IMG/VR virus record: IMGVR_UViG_2579778956_000003
Location: 1 to 8,716 of that record
DNA: 8,716 bases
Direction: 5' to 3' (one strand)
Source: a virus
Lineage: Duplodnaviria; Heunggongvirae; Uroviricota; Caudoviricetes
Part shown: piece after piece, positions 1 through 8,716 of the stretch
Position numbering within the stretch: position 1 is the first letter of the stretch
How the letters are laid out: every line of letters begins with the position of its first letter
Translations under genes and position numbers: made by a program
The notes under the pieces: model-generated
What the model was told of the DNA's origin: nothing
What the model saw: only the letters and a program-made list of their open reading frames with translations
The model's database searches: none

Positions 1-1818
1 TTATCTTGCGTTTATTGATATATCAAAGAATGCGTTTCCTGTATTAAACATGTTTTGTTTTATATCGTCTGATGCTCCAGCTCTAAATATTCTCCTGAAA
101 TATATCCTTCCATCTGCCACATAAGGCTCTACGGCAAAAAGATTGGTATCTGATCTTATTGAGGTTGTAAGATTATTTGTTATTGAGCCAACAGCACTAC
201 CTGCTATTGTTGATAGGTAAGGAGGTAGTTGAATGTAAAATGTATCTCCTGAAGAATTATTAGTTATATTGCATGTTATAACTACACGTCCAATTACGGT
301 TTTTTGTAAAATATTATGCGTATATGACTGATTTGTATATGTACACGGTATATTTACTGTTGGCTTGTAGCTACCGCTTGCGATTGGATACAAATATGTA
401 GATTGCATATTTCCACCATAAACATAGTTGTTTAGCGGGCTTGCCGAATCTGTAAATGTGAAAAATCCATCATCTTCAATGTATGCATAATCACCTATTA
501 AGGGGCTAATAAAGGTATTCTCAGAACCAGATATCAGAAAAACCTTACCATATTTCAAGCCACAATCCTGATGAGATAGGTTCCTAGGTGATAAAAATGT
601 GTTGTTAAAACCAGAAATTACATAACCAATCCCTCCATTTGTAATACTGGCTGCTTGTGTTTTGTTTATTTTTTTCGGTGAGTCAGAATAGAATTGCACT
701 ACGTTATTACCACTACCGCTCATTTTAAGGCCGAATAACATATTACGAGTGGTTCTATCTGGTGATGACATTCCCCAGCAGTGGGCCTTTGATACTTGAT
801 TAGCATTTCCAGGCATATCAAGTCCAGTAGTATATCCTGAAACTATAACGTTAGAATAAAATGAATCTGACGTTTCATGTCTAATTCCTGCATAATCATG
901 AGAGTTATTTTGATCAAAAGGTGCAATGATTGAAATGTTTGATATGTTCCATCCATACCCCTTAACAATCTTAATTCCTCCCCTTCTCATGTTGAATGTT
1001 CTTAATCTTGATATGATCGGATCCACTCCATCAGTACCAAGAATACCAACAGCATCTATTACAGAGTCAGGGGCAATATATAGACCATCAATATGAACTC
1101 TATCACCTGTATCTATTGCCGTTATTCCATCATTGTAAGGATCCCTCCACGCGTCGTCTTTTACCTCAATAACAACATCATCTGAAAAGTCACGGGGTTT
1201 TATTTCTCCGAGATGCGTGACTCGTGAACCTGATTTATGAATAAGTCTTTCAGTTATACAACTTTTACCTACAAAAATAATATCTCTTTTGTTATCAGCA
1301 GACCAGTCAAGAGCAGTTTGATTTGCTATTGTATCATCAGTTACACCATCACATTTCGCACCAAAATATTTATTTGTAGGAATGTCTTTTAGAATGTCGC
1401 CAACGCTTCTAACAATGAATGGAGCTGATCCAGTCATGACTATGTCAGCACCAGAACTACTCTCAAGCTGTTGCCTTAACTGATCTGGGTCGTATTTTGC
1501 AATGTCAGGGAAGTAGAACTGCTGCGATCCATAGGCGTCGTAAACAGCCATGCTGTAATTCTGCACAGTAACGAACTTTGATATCTGCCCGTTGTAAACA
1601 GGATACCCACCCGCGTTAATAACTATCGGCTGAGCAGTTGGAATCAGATCTCCAGTTTCACTTTCAATATAAACAGGGATTTGATTCGCTGGGATTGTAG
1701 GATCGGTATCTGGTAGCCCAAGATAGATTTTACCGTTGGCATTTGCTTTAAATGAGCGTGCCAGCGTGAAAAGCTGCGCAGGCATCCCTACCACTAAGTT
1801 TGCGGTGATATCTGACAT
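1..1818 (-). CDS. Tailspike protein (P22 gp9-like N-terminal head-binding domain, divergent receptor-binding domain); 605 aa, stop codon at 1..3
   Basis: The N-terminus [34 protein letters not shown]...[10 protein letters not shown]...[10 protein letters not shown]...KYDPDQ closely matches the P22 tailspike head-binding domain as I recall it. The first Met of the tracked ORF (1866) adds 16 residues with no RBS; the ATG at 1818 is preceded by GGAG with a 7 nt spacer. The rest is Gly/Asn/Ser/Thr-rich as expected for a beta-helix receptor-binding domain. Confidence 0.9.
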
Positions 1819-1843
1819 TTCATTACTCCAAACGAATGATATG

Positions 1844-1866
1844 ATGCAACCATGATGTGATTGCAT
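1844..1866. promoter_or_regulatory. Near-perfect inverted repeat ATGCAACCA-N5-TGATTGCAT in the divergent tailspike/mnt intergenic region; candidate Mnt operator
   Basis: The two 9 bp arms match at 8 of 9 positions around a 5 bp spacer. It sits 26-48 bp upstream of the tailspike ATG and about 75 bp upstream of the mnt ATG. Ribbon-helix-helix repressors such as Mnt bind dyad operators of this size. Promoter hexamers could not be assigned with confidence. Confidence 0.35.
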
Positions 1867-1939
1867 ACCGAAATGGTACTATTGAGTATTTATCCAGTAG
1901 GTTACGATGCCATTCCACCCAACTGGTGAGGCATCAAGG

Positions 1940-2200
1940 ATGTACAGCAAATACGACGAGGCGCAGTTTCACTTGAGACTTCCGCATGAACTCCACGAGA
2001 AAATTAAACAGCGCGCGAAGATGAATAACAGGTCGCTGAACTCTGAGATAATTGCAGCGATTGAAGAATCATTGACTAAACAAAGCTCTGCATCAGTTTA
2101 CATTGACGATGCAGAGCGTATGGCAGAACAACAATCTGATATGGTTAAGAAAATTGTCTTTGATACGCTCAAGGAGCTATATAAAAAAGACAGCAACTAA
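1940..2200 (+). CDS. mnt: Mnt-like ribbon-helix-helix repressor (Arc/Mnt family), 86 aa
   Basis: The protein aligns over its whole length with P22 Mnt as I recall it: FHLRLPHELHEKIKQRAKMNNRSLNSEII versus FNFRMPMEVREKLKFRAEANGRSMNSELL, and C-terminal DDAERMAEQQSDMVKKIVFDTLKELYKK versus NDAERLADEQSELVKKMVFDTLKDLYKK. The start at 1940 is chosen because GGTGAGG lies 8 nt upstream; the tracked ATG at 1907 would add an 11-residue extension ahead of the DNA-binding strand. Confidence 0.85.
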   Translation: MYSKYDEAQFHLRLPHELHEKIKQRAKMNNRSLNSEIIAAIEESLTKQSSASVYIDDAERMAEQQSDMVKKIVFDTLKELYKKDSN

Positions 2201-2220
2201 CCATCCATTACGGAGGATTT

Positions 2221-2298
2221 ATGCAAAGAGATATGATGAATATTGCATTCTACATATTTGGTTTTTGCACTTTCCTGGTATTTGCAAAGCTATTCTGA
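2221..2298 (+). CDS. Hypothetical 25 aa hydrophobic peptide (MQRDMMNIAFYIFGFCTFLVFAKLF) just downstream of mnt
   Basis: GGAGG at 2212..2216 lies 4 nt upstream of the ATG at 2221. The product is a single predicted transmembrane helix. It is below the ORF-track length cut-off and its last codons overlap the convergent 3' end of the gp16-like gene. Confidence 0.25.
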   Translation: MQRDMMNIAFYIFGFCTFLVFAKLF

Positions 2299-4683
2299 CA
2301 ACGCATCAGACTTAGCCCCCTGCGTCAGAGCGTTAATTGTATTTTGTGCCTGCTGCATTGCTTTCTCAAAGGCTGTTGATCCGCGTGGGGTGTTTGCCAT
2401 TCGGAGCATTGCATTTCTGAATGGCTCGCTCTCATAGGCGCGAGTAAGAAGTCCGTAGCTTACTGCTGCGCCAGTTGTCGCCGGGTTCATTGCCGTCCCA
2501 TACCCAATAATGAACGGGATAGTTTGCTGTCCTGTGGGTGTTGTTACTGCCGCTTTTGCAGCCTGCTGCGTGGATTGCAGGTAGTTTTTCAATCCTTTCA
2601 GATAAGCAGCGTCCTGCCCCTTAAATGTGATGCCAGTCTGGTTTTGCAGGATGTTAAGCTGCCGAAGGAACTGGTCAGGGGATCCGCCAGATTTCTCCAT
2701 CGCCTTTCCAATGATGCCATTGCGCATTTGCGCCCTGCCAACACGACCAACTGAGTTATACAGCGTCTTAATTTCAGATTTGTTCTTGCTGAATAGCATG
2801 TTGTTGACAACTTCCGGCGTCAGATCGCCTTTCATGAGAACATTCTTCAGCCTGGTATTCTTTAGTTTCTCTGCTTCGTCAGCGTAGACGGCATTGGCCT
2901 GCTGATATTTACGGAGAGTATCGTTGCCAAGATTCTGACCAATGGCACCATTGATATCGTCGGTCATTGCCTTGTAAACGCGCTGAATGGCGGCATCGGA
3001 ACGGTTTGGTAACACTGGTCGCTCACCCTTCACGTCCATTCTGAACTGGCTGCGCAGGTCACTTAATTGCTTCAAATCCAGATTTACCGGACCATCAGGG
3101 CCAGCATTGCGAACAAGCTCATCACGATATGACTGAAGTTTTGAAATAGTCTCGTTATCAGCAACCTTACCAAGCTTCTGCAGGTTAGATATTTCTGTAT
3201 CAATCTGCTGAATTGCTCGCACAGGCTGAATGTTTACTCCAGCCATAGCATTCTGAACCTGCTCCAGTCGATTACCGGCGGCACGACGAATTCCTGATGT
3301 TTTCGCCTTAAGGCTGTCAATAACAACCGCTGGATCATACTCACCGAATTTATCGGCAAATCTCTGCACCAACTGGCTTCTCGCTTCCTGTTGCGTTGCT
3401 CTCATTCCGCTTGTGCCAGCCAGGGGGATATTTTCTGCTGTAGTCTGCGCCATTTTCCCGACGCGGGAAGTAGGCTGTAACAGGTCTGTGGTGTGCAGAG
3501 GAACTCCTTCACGCTCTGCAAACCTGATAGCCTGTTGAGCTTCTGGTGCTATCGAACCACGAACACCACGATAAGCAGCACCTAATCCACGTCCGGCAGC
3601 GTTAATAGCACCGCCAGCCAGCACACCAACGCCTAAATCGGTGGCGAGTGCTTCCGCATCATCTTTCGCACTGTTTGCAGCAAGTGATCCAACTGCGTTT
3701 TCTGCTAGAAGGCGAGTTGCCCCCTGAGCAATTCGACCAGCAAGTGTTGGTGCCTGTGTTGCCGCTCTCTCAACGCCAGCAGGAGTGAGGTAAGGCAATG
3801 CTTCGGCAAATACCCTTCCCTCTGTCGTTTGTGGAGTCAGCGCGCCTTGCTGAAGGCCAAAGTCCTGCTCTAATCCCTGCGTTGTTACTCGTGGTGCTGG
3901 TTGATATGTACCATCGCCAATGCCGAGTTTACCGCCAGCCCAAGCCGCCGCGCTTGTTACAGCATCAGTGAGTTCAGCAGGTATGTTCGCTACGTTGATT
4001 CCTGCCTGTAGTAAGCCGCGCCCGGTTTCAGCAAGTCCATTACCAAGGTCAGACATTATTCCGCCTTGCTGCTGAACAGGTTTCGGTGCGACAGAACTTA
4101 CGGGTTGAGGTGGCTGCTGACTGGCTGCCTGCTGCTCAATCTGAGCAAATGGATTATTTGGGTCTGACTGCACGCCTGATGCCGATACTTGTTCGGATGA
4201 CTGTGCTTCCAGTTGTGCAAACGGGTTGTTAGGGTCTTGCTGAGGATGTACCTTTGCAGAGGTGGCGCGCTGTTCGACTGTTGAGTCTGTCACCGGGTCA
4301 CCCGCCCATTGAGCAAAGCGATCATCAACGTAACCGCGGCCTTCAGGTCCTGGCGTATATTCACCACGCTTTGCCTTCATAACGTTGCCGGGACCGTCGT
4401 GATAAGCCTGAAGAGCGTCACGCCAGTTACCAAACTGCTGGTACATCTTTGCCAGATAGCGCGCGCCAGCGTCAGCCTGATATTCGGGGTTTTGCATTTG
4501 CTCATCGGTATAACCCATATCACGCCATGTCCCAGGCATGACCTGAGTCAATCCTACAGCCCCGGCGGAGCTTACTGCGGCAGGGTTGTAAGAAGACTCC
4601 TTGGCACCCAGTGCAGTCATCAACCCTTCTGGCACACCGTAACGTGCGCCAGCCTGCTCTAACAAATCACGGTAATTAGCCAT
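2290..4683 (-). CDS. DNA-ejection / internal virion protein (P22 gp16 position) with N-terminal lytic transglycosylase (SLT) domain, 797 aa
   Basis: The N-terminal ~110 residues carry SLT family hallmarks: GAKESSYNPAAVSSAGAVGLTQVMPGTW ... AGARYLAKMY ... ALQAYHDGPGN. It is the last of three tightly packed genes between gene 10 and the tailspike, and its ATG directly abuts the upstream TAA. A Gln/Ala/Gly-rich linker contains a duplicated DPNNPFAQ(L/I)E motif. Confidence 0.85.
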   Translation of the reverse strand: MANYRDLLEQAGARYGVPEGLMTALGAKESSYNPAAVSSAGAVGLTQVMPGTWRDMGYTDEQMQNPEYQADAGARYLAKMYQQFGNWRDALQAYHDGPGNVMKAKRGEYTPGPEGRGYVDDRFAQWAGDPVTDSTVEQRATSAKVHPQQDPNNPFAQLEAQSSEQVSASGVQSDPNNPFAQIEQQAASQQPPQPVSSVAPKPVQQQGGIMSDLGNGLAETGRGLLQAGINVANIPAELTDAVTSAAAWAGGKLGIGDGTYQPAPRVTTQGLEQDFGLQQGALTPQTTEGRVFAEALPYLTPAGVERAATQAPTLAGRIAQGATRLLAENAVGSLAANSAKDDAEALATDLGVGVLAGGAINAAGRGLGAAYRGVRGSIAPEAQQAIRFAEREGVPLHTTDLLQPTSRVGKMAQTTAENIPLAGTSGMRATQQEARSQLVQRFADKFGEYDPAVVIDSLKAKTSGIRRAAGNRLEQVQNAMAGVNIQPVRAIQQIDTEISNLQKLGKVADNETISKLQSYRDELVRNAGPDGPVNLDLKQLSDLRSQFRMDVKGERPVLPNRSDAAIQRVYKAMTDDINGAIGQNLGNDTLRKYQQANAVYADEAEKLKNTRLKNVLMKGDLTPEVVNNMLFSKNKSEIKTLYNSVGRVGRAQMRNGIIGKAMEKSGGSPDQFLRQLNILQNQTGITFKGQDAAYLKGLKNYLQSTQQAAKAAVTTPTGQQTIPFIIGYGTAMNPATTGAAVSYGLLTRAYESEPFRNAMLRMANTPRGSTAFEKAMQQAQNTINALTQGAKSDALSE
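4135..4236 (-). repeat. Duplicated 10-residue motif DPNNPFAQ(L/I)E inside the gp16-like protein (nt 4207..4236 and 4135..4164)
   Basis: Both copies translate to the same peptide but use different synonymous codons (gaccctaacaacccgtttgcacaactggaa versus gacccaaataatccatttgctcagattgag), which argues for conservation at the protein level. Confidence 0.6.
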
Positions 4684-6015
4684 TTACTGCCCCAAAGATG
4701 GAAGATATCCGTAGCGATTAATGAAGTCGATTGACAGCTCGGGGTGCTGCTTCAGGTAATCTATAGAAGCCTGAGGCGCTTCCACTCGCTTGATACCGTT
4801 TTGCTGAACGTACTTACCAACCGCCTCATTACGCTTCTGGTTGAGCGTGTTCAGGATGACGCCAGCGTTGCGACGAAAGGACTCCTCGCTCTGCGAGTTC
4901 TGCAGCGAACCAACAGCCTGGTCGAGCTTTTTGCCCTCGGCATCAGAAAGTGCGCCCATGCCTCGCATGGCCTGAACCGCTGTCAGGTATGCTTGTGATT
5001 TAAAGGTATCAAGTCGTGCCTGAGTGTCTGCAGCCTGTGAGCCTGGAACGTTGGGGATTACTCCACGTAAGCCTGTAATGCTCTTAAGTGAAGGAGAACT
5101 AACGATATCGTTCAGAGTGAACATGCTGGTTGTGAGGGTGTTGATGCCGTCTTTGTAGCCATCATTTAGCGCTTGCTGCTTCTGCTGCAACTGCTGGTTG
5201 TTGGCTGCTATGCGGCTCTGTATTTCCTGGCGCTTCAGGTCGTTAGTTTCTGCTGATAGCATCCGGTCAAGGCGCTTATTTTCGTTGTTAATGCGGTTTG
5301 TTTCTGCGTCCAGATTAATGCGCTGCTGACCTAAATTCGCCTGGATATCTTGCCCGCGCATTGTGATTGCCTGATTCCGAGCGGCGGTTTGCGAATCCAG
5401 GTCCTGACCGCGCATGGTAACCTGGCGGCCCTGCATTTTATCCTGTAGGTCAAAGTATTTTTCGGGTCCGAGACTGTTCATCCCCAGGTGATCGACAAAT
5501 TCGCCGAACTGCCGCGGGTTCTGTTGGTACATCTGAGCGACGTCCTGAGGATTAACGCCAACACGAGCTAACTCACCGGCGTTGTTTTGCAGCCATGATT
5601 GCATTGCTTCTGGAGACGATGACGCAAGGCGTGCGCCAGCCGCTAAGGTGCCGATAGAATTACGCTGGTCTTCATCAATGAATCCCATGCCTTTACGAAC
5701 AGATTCAATCTGGTCTGGATATTGAGTAGCCAACTGACGCAAAGCACCGCGATCACCAGACGCATAAGCATTAGCGTATGCCTGCTGAAATTCTTTCTGC
5801 CGCTGAGCCTGCTTTTCCTGCTGAAACACCCCCGCAATACCTGAAAGGCCTTGCAAAGCAGTCAGCCCAACATTGTTAGCGCCTGAACGCTCAATATCAT
5901 TGTTCTGCCTGATAAGCTGAAGCGTATTGCCGATGTCATTTACGCTCGGAGCGTTTGAGTTGACGCCGCCGATACCAGCCAATAATCCGCCATTTAATCC
6001 TTGCCAAGTAGCCAT
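4684..6015 (-). CDS. DNA-ejection protein (P22 gp20 position), 443 aa
   Basis: This is the middle of the three ejection-protein genes, with size close to P22 gp20 (about 470 aa as I recall). It is Gln/Asn/Ala-rich with coiled-coil-like segments, starts 6 nt after the gp7-like stop behind a GGGG RBS, and its stop TAA abuts the gp16-like ATG. Confidence 0.8.
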   Translation of the reverse strand: MATWQGLNGGLLAGIGGVNSNAPSVNDIGNTLQLIRQNNDIERSGANNVGLTALQGLSGIAGVFQQEKQAQRQKEFQQAYANAYASGDRGALRQLATQYPDQIESVRKGMGFIDEDQRNSIGTLAAGARLASSSPEAMQSWLQNNAGELARVGVNPQDVAQMYQQNPRQFGEFVDHLGMNSLGPEKYFDLQDKMQGRQVTMRGQDLDSQTAARNQAITMRGQDIQANLGQQRINLDAETNRINNENKRLDRMLSAETNDLKRQEIQSRIAANNQQLQQKQQALNDGYKDGINTLTTSMFTLNDIVSSPSLKSITGLRGVIPNVPGSQAADTQARLDTFKSQAYLTAVQAMRGMGALSDAEGKKLDQAVGSLQNSQSEESFRRNAGVILNTLNQKRNEAVGKYVQQNGIKRVEAPQASIDYLKQHPELSIDFINRYGYLPSLGQ

Positions 6016-6024
6016 GATTACCCC

Positions 6025-6717
6025 TTAAAACAACGAGCCAAGCAATCCGATACCAGCACCAATGCCAGCACCCCAAGGTGTTGATGTTCCCAAAAGGCTG
6101 GCAAGACCTGCACCGGCAATCGCACCAGACGTTCCGCCACTAATTGCTGTCTGAAGACTTGATGGTTTGTTGGCATTAGCAGCGGCAAGAGCTGCGCTTT
6201 GCTGTGCAATGCTGCTCATGTTGTTGGCGTACGTCTGCCCGGCGTTTGCCTGACCTTGCAGAGCACCAAGCCCAACGTTTGCCAGATTGTTGTAATTGCT
6301 CATCTGGTTTGATAACCAAGACTGACCGAGAGTCGGCGCGATCGTAGCCAGTTGATTGCTTGTGGCTGTCGAACCAAGTCCACCCGTCGCCTCCGCAGCA
6401 GCAAGACTCTGGTAACGCGCCTGACCTGCAAGGTCTTTATACTGCTGAGAGTTGTAATACTGATTAAGTGCCTGCCCCTGACCTTCTAAACTGGAAAGAT
6501 TCTGCAACTGGTTAACATACTGCTCCGCAAGAGGCGTGAACGGAGCAAGGTTTTTCATGATCGTCTGCCACTGCTGATTTTGCAGGTCTGCTGCATACTT
6601 CTGAGCTTCTGCGGCATACTTTGCGCTTTTATCAGAACTGCCACCTTTCCCACCCTTTTCAGGGCAATAAGGTTCCTCGCCGCGCAGTTTTCTGCCCAGC
6701 TTAAATGCATATAACAT
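6025..6717 (-). CDS. DNA-ejection protein (P22 gp7 position), 230 aa
   Basis: Length is almost identical to P22 gp7 (about 229 aa as I recall). The N-terminus MLYAFKLGRKLRGEEP is followed by low-complexity Gly/Ala/Gln/Ser-rich sequence. A GGGAGA RBS lies 5 nt upstream, and the start sits 2 nt after the stop of the upstream ORF. Confidence 0.8.
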   Translation of the reverse strand: MLYAFKLGRKLRGEEPYCPEKGGKGGSSDKSAKYAAEAQKYAADLQNQQWQTIMKNLAPFTPLAEQYVNQLQNLSSLEGQGQALNQYYNSQQYKDLAGQARYQSLAAAEATGGLGSTATSNQLATIAPTLGQSWLSNQMSNYNNLANVGLGALQGQANAGQTYANNMSSIAQQSAALAAANANKPSSLQTAISGGTSGAIAGAGLASLLGTSTPWGAGIGAGIGLLGSLF

Positions 6718-6719
6718 GG

Positions 6720-7091
6720 CTATCTCCCGTGATTCAGGAAGTCGATTAGTTCTTCGCGTGTGGCGCTGTAAAAAGTCACGTCATCCACGCCTTTGAAGTA
6801 TTTCTTGATGGTTCCTACTCGCTTAAGGCCAATCATTGCGCAGTACATCTGACCGTGGCGGAATTTGCGTGCAGCGAACGATGTGACGCACTGAACGGTG
6901 GTGTTAGTCAGAATGTATCGCCAGAACGCCAGCCCGATTTCCTTGCTGAATCCACGAATCTCTGGCAGGTACATGGCGTGGCAATCAAAGGTTAGCGGCT
7001 GAATCTCCTGATAGTAAACAATTCCGCCGAACTGCCCGTGCACGTTCACCTCAAAGTAACGGCATACAGTCCTGTTTTCAACACACACCAT
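6720..7091 (-). pseudogene. 3' remnant of the gene preceding gp7 (gene-14 position in P22), out of frame with the gp10-like ORF; alternatively a small independent ORF starting at GTG 7043 (107 aa)
   Basis: The reading frame ends 2 nt before the gp7-like ATG, with the gp7 RBS inside its last codons, as expected for the authentic 3' end of a late gene. Its 5' end overlaps the end of the gp10-like ORF in a different frame. A possible restart signal (GAGG, 5 nt spacer, GTG at 7043, overlapping the upstream TGA) exists but may be fortuitous. Confidence 0.35.
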
Positions 7092-8110
7092 TGCGGACCA
7101 TTGGCGCTTGAAGATGCGTCGTACACGAGAACATGGCGCGCAAGATGGATAATCAGCAACTCATGCGCATCAAATCGCAGAGACTCCATCACGCCATCAG
7201 CCAGTTCATCAGCAGTGTAGGAGCGTAGTATTTTCTCAATGCTCGCGCTGGCGATTGGTGATACCTGACCAGAGCCGATGATATACACAGACGGCGCACC
7301 TGTTGCCGGATTGCTGATGAACGCATACGAATCAGCGAACTGCGTTTTGCAGTAGGTTCCAGCGATACCTTTCTGCACCATTAACGATGGCTGGGCGACA
7401 TACAAAGCAGCACCAACGGTGGTTGCGCCAGTCAGGGAGAAATATTCAATCGTCGATGAACCAAAGCAGACGATAAAGTCTCGCCATGTACCTATGCCGA
7501 TGATGCCGTCAGGCTGCGATTCTGCACGATATTGTGCGCTGTAGCGGTCAGGGTGCGATTCGTCTTCAAGGTCAGTGATAAACCATGAATCAGTACCGTC
7601 TTTTGACCACGCATAACGCCCACGTAAGCGCGTAATGTCGCGAACTGAACCTAACTCATACTGCGTAAAACCGCTGTCTGCAGGCCAGTTTGATACGGTT
7701 TTAACCGTGCCATCATAGCGATACTCGACCAGTTGACCATTAACGCCTACAGCCTGAGATGTTCGACCATGCGCCATTGATACGCGGCCACTTCCGGCGA
7801 CGTCACCGACTTCGCTTTCGCCCTTATACAGCTTGCCACCACACACGCGATAAACAGCATTCTGCGCCATGTTGTACTCGACGCCTCGCGATACGCCGTT
7901 CACATCAGAACGTTTGGCAATGCCCGGGAATGAGCGAAGATATCCGCTGCTGTTCAGGATTTCTTTGGGTGTAGCCAACATATTCACTGGCAGATAGTCG
8001 ATATAGTCGGCGTTTCGAAAGTCTTTGCCGACACCTTTCATAAGCGGAAGTTGCTGAACCTTGAGGCTAAATGCGCGAAGATGGCTGCTGAAAATACCTC
8101 GCTTAAGCAA
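7046..8110 (-). pseudogene. Tail hub / packaged-DNA stabilisation protein (P22 gp10-like), lacking its C-terminal ~125 residues and probably its native start
   Basis: The region from LPLMKGVGKDFRNADYIDYLPVNMLATPKEILNSSGYLRSFPGI to QWCVLKTGLY matches my recollection of P22 gp10 residues ~9-345 at high identity. Similarity stops after TGLY, followed by AVTLR and a stop, whereas gp10 is about 472 aa. The tracked start is a TTG at 8110 with no RBS, the first ATG (8041) also lacks an RBS, and the 5' end overlaps a plus-strand gene. Confidence 0.6.
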
Positions 8111-8365
8111 TCTGAGAAGGAATTTAATGACTTTTGTCGTGAGGAGTTTAGCGAATGGGAAGATGATGTTACTGAAACCCCAGCCACCGATGCTTTCCTG
8201 GCTGAAGTACGGGCGCAGGGGGTAGAGATGTACGCAGATAACCTCGACAACGGAGCAGACGACGCAGAACGAGGTGGTTTTGATTATGCCGTTAAGTTTC
8301 TACGCAGTGAAGCGTCTAGTGTACGTTTGTTCGCCGACCAGCTTCGCAAAGGAGGCAACCAGTGA
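8081..8365 (+). CDS. Hypothetical acidic protein (about 94 aa from ATG 8081; start uncertain, possibly 5'-truncated)
   Basis: The ORF has roughly 22 Asp/Glu against 10 Lys/Arg. No convincing RBS precedes the ATG at 8081 or the TTG at 8051, while an internal ATG at 8228 has GGGGG 5 nt upstream. Its stop overlaps the GTG of the next ORF (GTGA), suggesting coupled translation. It is on the same strand as the downstream AlpA-like gene. Confidence 0.4.
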   Translation: MAAENTSLKQSEKEFNDFCREEFSEWEDDVTETPATDAFLAEVRAQGVEMYADNLDNGADDAERGGFDYAVKFLRSEASSVRLFADQLRKGGNQ

Positions 8366-8481
8366 GCAAGATTGACTATCAGGAACTGCGTGAGATAGCA
8401 AAGCACCAGAGACTTACAGAAGAATCAGCGAGCTACGCAAGGACTAACGCCTCACACTCGATGAGGCCTGTACATATCTGA
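8362..8481 (+). CDS. Hypothetical 39 aa protein (MSKIDYQELREIAKHQRLTEESASYARTNASHSMRPVHI), translationally coupled to the upstream ORF
   Basis: GGAGG at 8351..8355 lies 6 nt upstream of the GTG at 8362, which overlaps the upstream stop codon. The ORF is below the ORF-track length cut-off and ends just before a terminator-like hairpin. Confidence 0.3.
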   Translation: MSKIDYQELREIAKHQRLTEESASYARTNASHSMRPVHI

Positions 8482-8484
8482 TAG

Positions 8485-8510
8485 AGCCGCTATATGGCGG
8501 TTTCTTTTTT
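8485..8510 (+). terminator. Candidate intrinsic terminator (short GC stem AGCCGCT / GGCGGTT with ATAT loop, followed by a T-rich run TTTCTTTTTT)
   Basis: The hairpin and T-tract lie 4 nt after the stop of the 39-codon ORF and about 15 nt before the RBS of the AlpA-like gene. The stem is short and includes G-U pairs. Confidence 0.3.
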
Positions 8511-8524
8511 CCTGGAGAATTAAG

Positions 8525-8716
8525 ATGACCGATACCAGCCTGATTCCTGAGAAAGAAGTGATGAACAAGCTCGGTGTTTCATCACGTCAGACAATCTGGA
8601 ACTATACCAAACGGCACGGATTTCCGAAGCCAGTCAGAACCCACCCCAAATCATACCTTCGTGAAGCTGTTGAAGGGTGGATTCTTAACGGTGGCGTTAA
8701 TCAGAAATGCTCCTGA
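8525..8716 (+). CDS. AlpA-family phage regulatory protein / excisionase-like DNA-binding protein, 63 aa (complete; stop at 8714..8716)
   Basis: The sequence KEVMNKLGVSSRQTIWNYTKRHGFPKPVR...PKSYLREAVEGWI fits the AlpA/Xis-type helix-turn-helix signature (L-G-V/L-S-x-x-T-I/L ... FPKP ... W-x-x-x-E-V-x-x-W-I). GGAG lies 7 nt upstream of the ATG. Its orientation, opposite to the late genes and reading away from them, is what a prophage xis gene pointing toward int would show. Confidence 0.75.
   Translation: MTDTSLIPEKEVMNKLGVSSRQTIWNYTKRHGFPKPVRTHPKSYLREAVEGWILNGGVNQKCS

Follow-up and report, generated by a model that had tools for sequence, protein, structure and literature searches.

The stretch of DNA analysed here (the window; 8,716 nucleotides) is 100% identical to part of contig AYKE01000009.1 in assembly GCA_000511565.1 (L004:3103-11818, reversed). 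It falls within an 11.5-kb remnant of a P22-like E. coli prophage (L004:1747-13226) that sits between sbcB and dacD, some 20-25 kb from the O-antigen locus, and that is bounded by an imperfect repeat of ~30 bp (CGTAATCGTGAAA...). The remnant carries, in order, an integrase and two small genes, then gp10 (truncated), DUF2824 (truncated), gp7, gp20, gp16, mnt, the tailspike and an acyltransferase. The features mapped in the window are listed below.

1..1818, minus strand: tailspike gene, 605 codons plus a stop codon at 3-1 (ORF list, translation, eight sister loci)
1474..1818, minus strand: P22-type head-binding domain, the capsid/tail-hub anchor, residues 1-115 (PF09008, PDB matches, G+C)
379..1473, minus strand: linker and N-cap, then predicted right-handed parallel beta-helix, residues 116-480; presumed O-antigen binding/cleaving part
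4..363, minus strand: C-terminal all-beta domain (predicted beta-sandwich), residues 486-605 (model strands)
1907..2200, plus strand: Arc/Mnt-family ribbon-helix-helix repressor gene (Arc PF03869, Repressor_Mnt PF11423)
2290-4683, minus strand: gp16-like ejection-protein gene with SLT domain (PF01464 and PF26808)
4684-6015, minus strand: gp20-like ejection-protein gene (PF16928)
6025-6717, minus strand: gp7-like ejection-protein gene (PF25688)
7063..7069, no strand: junction of a 1,164-bp internal deletion, with a 7-bp overlap (blastn versus L003/L005/L010)

The RefSeq names used in related prophages agree with the assignment of the P22-type ejection genes (2290..6717). The repressor gene, which is divergent from the tailspike gene and called as 86 aa in the sister loci, is annotated 'Arc family DNA-binding protein' in those prophages. 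Read from the window, the sister loci and the intact prophage of E. coli strain 401651, the gene order is that of P22-type phages: gp7/gp20/gp16, the immI (mnt/arc) region, the tailspike, then conversion genes and att.

The original prediction placed this tailspike on a defective prophage, and the locus bears this out. Gene calls across the 11.5-kb remnant include no head, lysis, replication or immunity-C genes; everything from excision through the head genes is missing, with the left arm jumping straight into gp10, and the late-gene activator and late promoter region have been deleted. Within the window, blastn against sister loci L003, L005 and L010 gave two blocks, 1-7069 and 7063-8716, that lie 1,164 bp apart in the sisters, and a comparison of the gene calls in L004 with those in L003 bears out this deletion. 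Lost in it are the C-terminus of gp10, the gene for the tail needle and the first part of the DUF2824 gene, and the loss shows directly that the element is defective. Four other deletions are present in sister loci L006-L009 (2832/4105, 4187/5649, 5839/7063 and 5839/7972), making five internal deletions in all, each in ejection-protein, needle or gp10 genes of DNA that is otherwise at least 99.9% identical. This pattern points to a remnant that is still eroding, and quickly, within a single lineage.

Beside the integrase, the left arm has two small ORFs that are unrelated to P22 late genes. One (8051-8365, plus strand) encodes a 104-aa acidic protein; the other (8525-8716, plus strand; 63 aa) reads like an AlpA/excisionase-type helix-turn-helix protein but has no Pfam hit. 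The remnant integrase is of the Arm-DNA-bind_3 type and argW prophages use IntS, a difference suggesting that the remnant is itself a hybrid. In 401651 the sbcB-dacD site is empty, and that strain carries its own intact P22-like phage copy at argW.

The tailspike gene lies in a minus-strand ORF that spans window positions 1866 to 1 in the ORF list. Translation probably begins at the ATG at 1818-1816, which GGAG precedes by 8 nt, and yields a product of 605 aa that ends in ISINAR. Eight sister loci also have the tailspike called as 605 aa, and a 99%-identical copy in strain 401651 is annotated 'phage tailspike protein'. An alternative in-frame ATG at 1866 (window 1819-1866) would add 16 codons; it is an unlikely start, because GGAG precedes the ATG at 1818 and the start MSDIT is conserved in the family. 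Nucleotides 4-1473 encode residues 116-605, and 1-1473 adds the stop codon.

Residues 1 to about 115 had been predicted to resemble the P22 tailspike up to a conserved KYDPDQ hinge, and profile and structure-database searches give the same answer. Pfam Head_binding, PF09008, aligns with residues 1-113 along its full length (model positions 1-113 of 113; E=4.8e-56; score 188 bits, cut-off 24), and in PDB these residues find the N-termini of the tailspikes of Sf6 and P22 (E=4e-50 to 1e-33). KYDPDQ occupies residues 108-113, aligned with YDPDQ of P22. At the level of sequence, the anchor is shown to be of the P22/Sf6 type. These N-terminal 113-115 residues would dock the tailspike trimer on the podovirus tail hub. 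G+C content is 44-46% in the head-binding part, 34-38% in the body and 48-55% in neighbouring prophage genes, so the module boundary is visible in composition too.

Beyond the hinge, the body was expected to be unlike those of P22, Sf6 or HK620, and this proved correct. In single-protein phmmer searches no PDB chain matched the tailspike beyond about residue 175-188; the P22 alignment ends at residue ~117 and that of Sf6 at ~174-188, the latter taking in, past the hinge, only the linker and N-cap motif. A body-only family profile searched against PDB found no tailspike and no solved homologue of the body. Marginal PDB matches (Cas13h1, PDZ and others; E>0.05) were set aside as noise. PHROGs families match only the N-terminal ~200 residues, that is, anchor and N-cap, and NCBIfam holds no family for the tailspike or the neighbouring acyltransferase.

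The body is nevertheless of a recognisable kind, contrary to what had been supposed. A translated search of phage genomes returned full-length body matches at 52% identity in two phages, Escherichia phage AV101 and EcoIv28_Lewi, and no record in that collection was closer. The AV101 match (tblastn, E=9e-164) is to the gene for WJJ54145.1, which is TSP3 in the AV101 paper (PMC10791037). By BLASTP, residues 114-605 align with TSP3 residues 158-647 with 257/492 identities, 68% positives and 2 gaps (523 bits), from the hinge to the C-terminus. A literature search found no paper characterising a closer relative. The AV101 authors themselves noted that the receptor-binding domains of TSP1-3 resemble E. 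coli prophage proteins (PMC10791037).

These alignments assign the body to the TSP3 family rather than to those of the P22, Sf6 and HK620 bodies. With the tailspikes of those Lederbergviruses and relatives the window protein has in common the head-binding domain, the KYDPDQ hinge, an overall beta-helix architecture, and the placement of its gene after the ejection genes and mnt/arc region and beside an att-end O-antigen conversion cassette; unlike them, it has a body without sequence similarity past the N-cap (~residue 188 of Sf6), their catalytic residues do not map onto it, and the target O-antigen differs. With TSP3 it has in common a body homologous over its whole length, a predicted beta-helix, and a tie to O153-type hosts. 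The two differ in their anchors, which is of the Ackermannviridae branched-complex type in TSP3 and a P22 head-binding domain here, and in their vehicles, a virulent myovirus of the genus Agtrevirus (Ackermannviridae) versus a temperate podovirus remnant; 48% of body residues also differ, and activity of the window protein is a prediction. Near-identity to a characterised tailspike, which the original prediction held would leave this as routine annotation, does not apply literally, the nearest being TSP3 at 52%, yet most of the finding does reduce to annotation: mechanistically and architecturally the protein is an ordinary tailspike of the Lederbergvirus type, and it is an uncharacterised member of the TSP3 family.

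The fold was examined in an AlphaFold2 monomer model built on the family alignment, with pLDDT of 80-96 from residue ~155 to the C-terminus; pLDDT is low in the anchor because the family alignment is heterogeneous there. Strands recur regularly up to about residue 470. A Foldseek search of PDB with this model returned solved tailspikes (best E ~1e-10): Det7 gp208, Sf6, P22, Klebsiella K2-2, HK620 and CBA120 TSP2 lead the matches (E=1e-10 to 1e-6). Identity to the fold neighbours is only 10-16%, and structural comparison with the P22, Sf6 and HK620 bodies gives only 10-20%. The body is accordingly predicted to be a right-handed parallel beta-helix, which fixes its fold class and not its chemistry. 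Acidic residues invariant in the family alignment are D141, D145, D161, D162, D171, D213, E218, D221, D230, D263, D318, D379, E448 and D557. The C-terminal domain, with strands at 492-504, 507-518, 560-568, 571-578 and 594-604 (pLDDT ~90-96), is conserved across the body family and by analogy probably serves in trimer stabilisation.

To the body we could assign 71 homologues in a large protein database. They comprise a group of near-identical proteins (P0002, of 605 aa and with 99 member sequences), a group at 87-88%, one protein at 67%, a large set at 57-60% (E. coli proteins of 604 aa that have this P22-type anchor), and a group at 52-55%, with AV101-like proteins among its members. The multiple alignment has the whole family collinear from the motif '...LRxxL...SGA...' just past the hinge. 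Upstream of the hinge the N-termini are of at least five unrelated kinds (PF09008, PF18668, T7-fibre-like, gp16-like and others), and the occurrence of one body behind at least five different anchors marks it, on alignment evidence, as a horizontally mobile receptor-binding module.

The module swap that had been proposed is also visible at the nucleotide level. Strains XPFI_3_2 and YJR have the body in common at 99.7% nucleotide identity and the whole gene at only 93.9%, and from this a recombination joint can be placed at the hinge. A second joint, inside the body, is indicated by the 604-aa group (for example WP_077897231.1, strain Ecol_545): it matches window 1265-1818 at 96-97% nucleotide identity, 911-1473 at ~75%, and is undetectable beyond. 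Its proteins resemble the window tailspike closely in the anchor and first ~70 body residues, which are nearly identical, and belong to the same body family (58% amino acid identity) in hosts that carry an O153-type cluster; unlike it, they have diverged in the rest of the body, and their partner is gtrABC rather than an acyltransferase.

One family member, P0001 (691 aa), equals the window tailspike from R115 onward and has a gp16-like N-terminus (PF26808). It is probably a deletion fusion of an ejection-protein gene to a tailspike body in another remnant.

What the body might recognise is indicated first by the experiments on TSP3. Purified TSP3 produced translucent zones only on O153 E. coli, apart from a small zone on an O8 strain, and cut plating of AV101 on the O153 host by ~5 logs; on the O8 strain the small zone came without blocking of infection, and the authors credit another polysaccharide (PMC10791037).

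We compared this with the O-antigen loci of complete E. coli genomes. Between galF and gnd, 401651 has genes for three glycosyltransferases and a 588-aa protein together with wzy and wzx; a gnu epimerase gene lies upstream of galF. Of 5,426 complete E. coli genomes only 80 carry this wzy (99.8-100% identity), among them a strain named CE-O153H30 and 2011C-4315, published as O153:H2 (PMC4929515). 'O153' here denotes the gene-cluster type shared with 2011C-4315, the genetic definition of O153 being disputed: its cluster and that of O178 were 99.9% identical in one study, and another disagrees (PMC4732683). A sensitive nucleotide search found a member of the body family in 13 complete genomes (four with the close variant, eight with the ~58% variant and one with a ~53% variant in a siphovirus-like prophage), and every one of the 13 has the O153-type cluster. 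Eleven were called from the wzy hit lists, XPFI_3_2 by inspection, and Ec-U18 by an identical galF-adjacent first glycosyltransferase. Against 80/5,426 the hypergeometric P is 5.6e-25, a value that assumes independence and is inflated by shared ancestry. This comparison takes up the proposal in the original prediction to set the tailspike against the O-antigen locus of its host, here by way of complete genomes that carry the gene. As to the window host, its sbcB-dacD flanks are 99.8-99.9% identical to those of 401651, with the same arrangement of IS and group II intron, and this likeness, a comparison of flanks alone, suggests that it is of the same serogroup.

In both 401651 (Kenya) and XPFI_3_2 (China) wzx is annotated as incomplete and is followed by a 144-aa ORF and an IS1 beside gnd (L012:27359-29747, L014:4640-7029). 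This could be either the normal layout of the cluster or the mark of O-antigen-defective strains.

An O-antigen modification cassette adjoins the tailspike in every context examined. Just past window position 1 lies a gene for a 342-aa Acyl_transf_3 membrane protein (L004:11854-12882), which by sequence is probably an O-antigen O-acetyltransferase acting in serotype conversion or superinfection exclusion. It resembles the phiV10 and Sf6 Oac modules in being an Acyl_transf_3 membrane protein encoded beside a tailspike in an att-proximal position (29% identity to phiV10 Oac); it differs in that its substrate and its effect on O153 are putative and its gene lies outside the window. The cassette varies with the body: Acyl_transf_3 accompanies the window variant, and gtrA-gtrB-gtrC the 58% and 53% variants.

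Homology to TSP3, the TSP3 experiments and the host association together make O153-type O-antigen the best-supported and most likely receptor. The body would bind and depolymerise this O-antigen, letting the virion reach the outer membrane. We put at roughly three in four the reading that the gene encodes a two-module tailspike, a P22-type anchor joined to a mobile TSP3-family body, most likely an O153 O-antigen depolymerase, in a decaying remnant.

The target might instead be a polysaccharide other than O-antigen, such as colanic acid, a group 1/4 capsule or ECA, with the O153 link a by-product of lineage. The best PHROG hit carries the label 'tail spike protein with colonic acid degradation activity', but it covers residues 1-202 only, anchor and N-cap rather than body, and for that reason we rejected the label as uninformative for the body. 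The small zone left by TSP3 on the O8 strain would also fit such a target; pre-treatment with TSP3, however, blocks infection specifically on the O153 host (PMC10791037). A by-product of lineage also sits poorly with the 13 strains, which come from different hosts, countries and continents and have prophages of different virion types in at least three integration contexts, and yet have one O-antigen cluster, and with neighbouring conversion genes that modify O-antigen. We regard a non-O-antigen target as very improbable.

Tailspike specificity can change at 52% identity. The protein could be an O-antigen tailspike whose specificity is other than that of TSP3, directed at modified O153 (O-acetylated or glucosylated) or at a related serogroup such as O178, with the ~100%, 58% and 53% subgroups each tuned to a different O153 variant. 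The subgroups are only 52-60% identical to each other and each is tied to a different cassette, acyltransferase or gtrABC; Ribf is present in both the O153 and O178 O-antigens, and the near-identity of the two clusters in one study (PMC4732683) points the same way. Against this, hosts of all subgroups carry the same wzy at 99.8-100% identity, and receptor-binding domains have been found to cluster by serogroup though their primary sequences 'diverge up to 70%' (PMC10408124). On balance a specificity differing from that of TSP3 seems unlikely, and we are similarly doubtful that the body variants discriminate acetylated, glucosylated and unmodified O153. Were they to do so, this would be an arms race between tailspike and conversion inside one serogroup, and no characterised spike would match the window variant in specificity.

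With O153-type O-antigen as the preferred target, a probable receptor can now be assigned to a widespread and so far unnamed family of E. coli prophage tailspikes. Experimental knowledge of this module comes solely from an Ackermannviridae phage, and the window protein gives it a member with a P22 anchor. The family is also a clean example of one receptor-binding module moving among at least five types of anchor. Among O153 strains are STEC, ETEC and ESBL producers, and a stable protein that binds or cleaves O153 could serve in typing or phage engineering, with modest practical value. The tailspike result opens no new biological question.

Three further strains with the O153-type wzy, MLI106K1 and CFSAN061763/8, have the head-binding region in common with the window (97% and 78% nucleotide identity), and a match to the body is undetectable in them. 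They may carry a second, unrelated body type directed at the same serogroup.

It had also been suggested that an intact tailspike on a defective prophage could still be made and act on the surface polysaccharide of its host, and here the locus offers little encouragement. A promoter and terminator scan of window 1-2400 found fewer promoter-like sites than in shuffled sequences, no terminator, and no convincing minus-strand promoter upstream of the tailspike. The late regulatory region is gone, and the Mnt/Arc repressor gene is divergent. The N-terminus, read from the sequence, has no signal-peptide-like export signal, leaving the protein no obvious way to the cell surface unless the cell lyses. 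Useful expression of the remnant's tailspike is improbable, as is any role for it in the present host.

A domesticated tailspike, expressed in the lysogen and trimming or remodelling the host's own O-antigen, might be read from the intactness of the ORF among neighbours that carry deletions, and from XPFI_3_2, where a second, independent remnant at argW likewise retains int, acyltransferase, tailspike and arc. Intactness in the sister loci is, however, a selection artefact: these loci were retrieved by exact match to the protein, and for this reason we did not accept the sameness of the tailspike across eight remnants with different deletions as a sign of purifying selection. Together with the scarcity of promoter-like sites and the lack of a path to the surface, this makes domestication a far-fetched account, and linkage to the att-proximal conversion gene explains the retention more simply. 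The tailspike would be intact by virtue of its position, att-proximal and beside the acyltransferase-like gene, while internal deletions erode the rest; on the simplest reading, it is the conversion gene that has been kept, and the tailspike has persisted as its neighbour.
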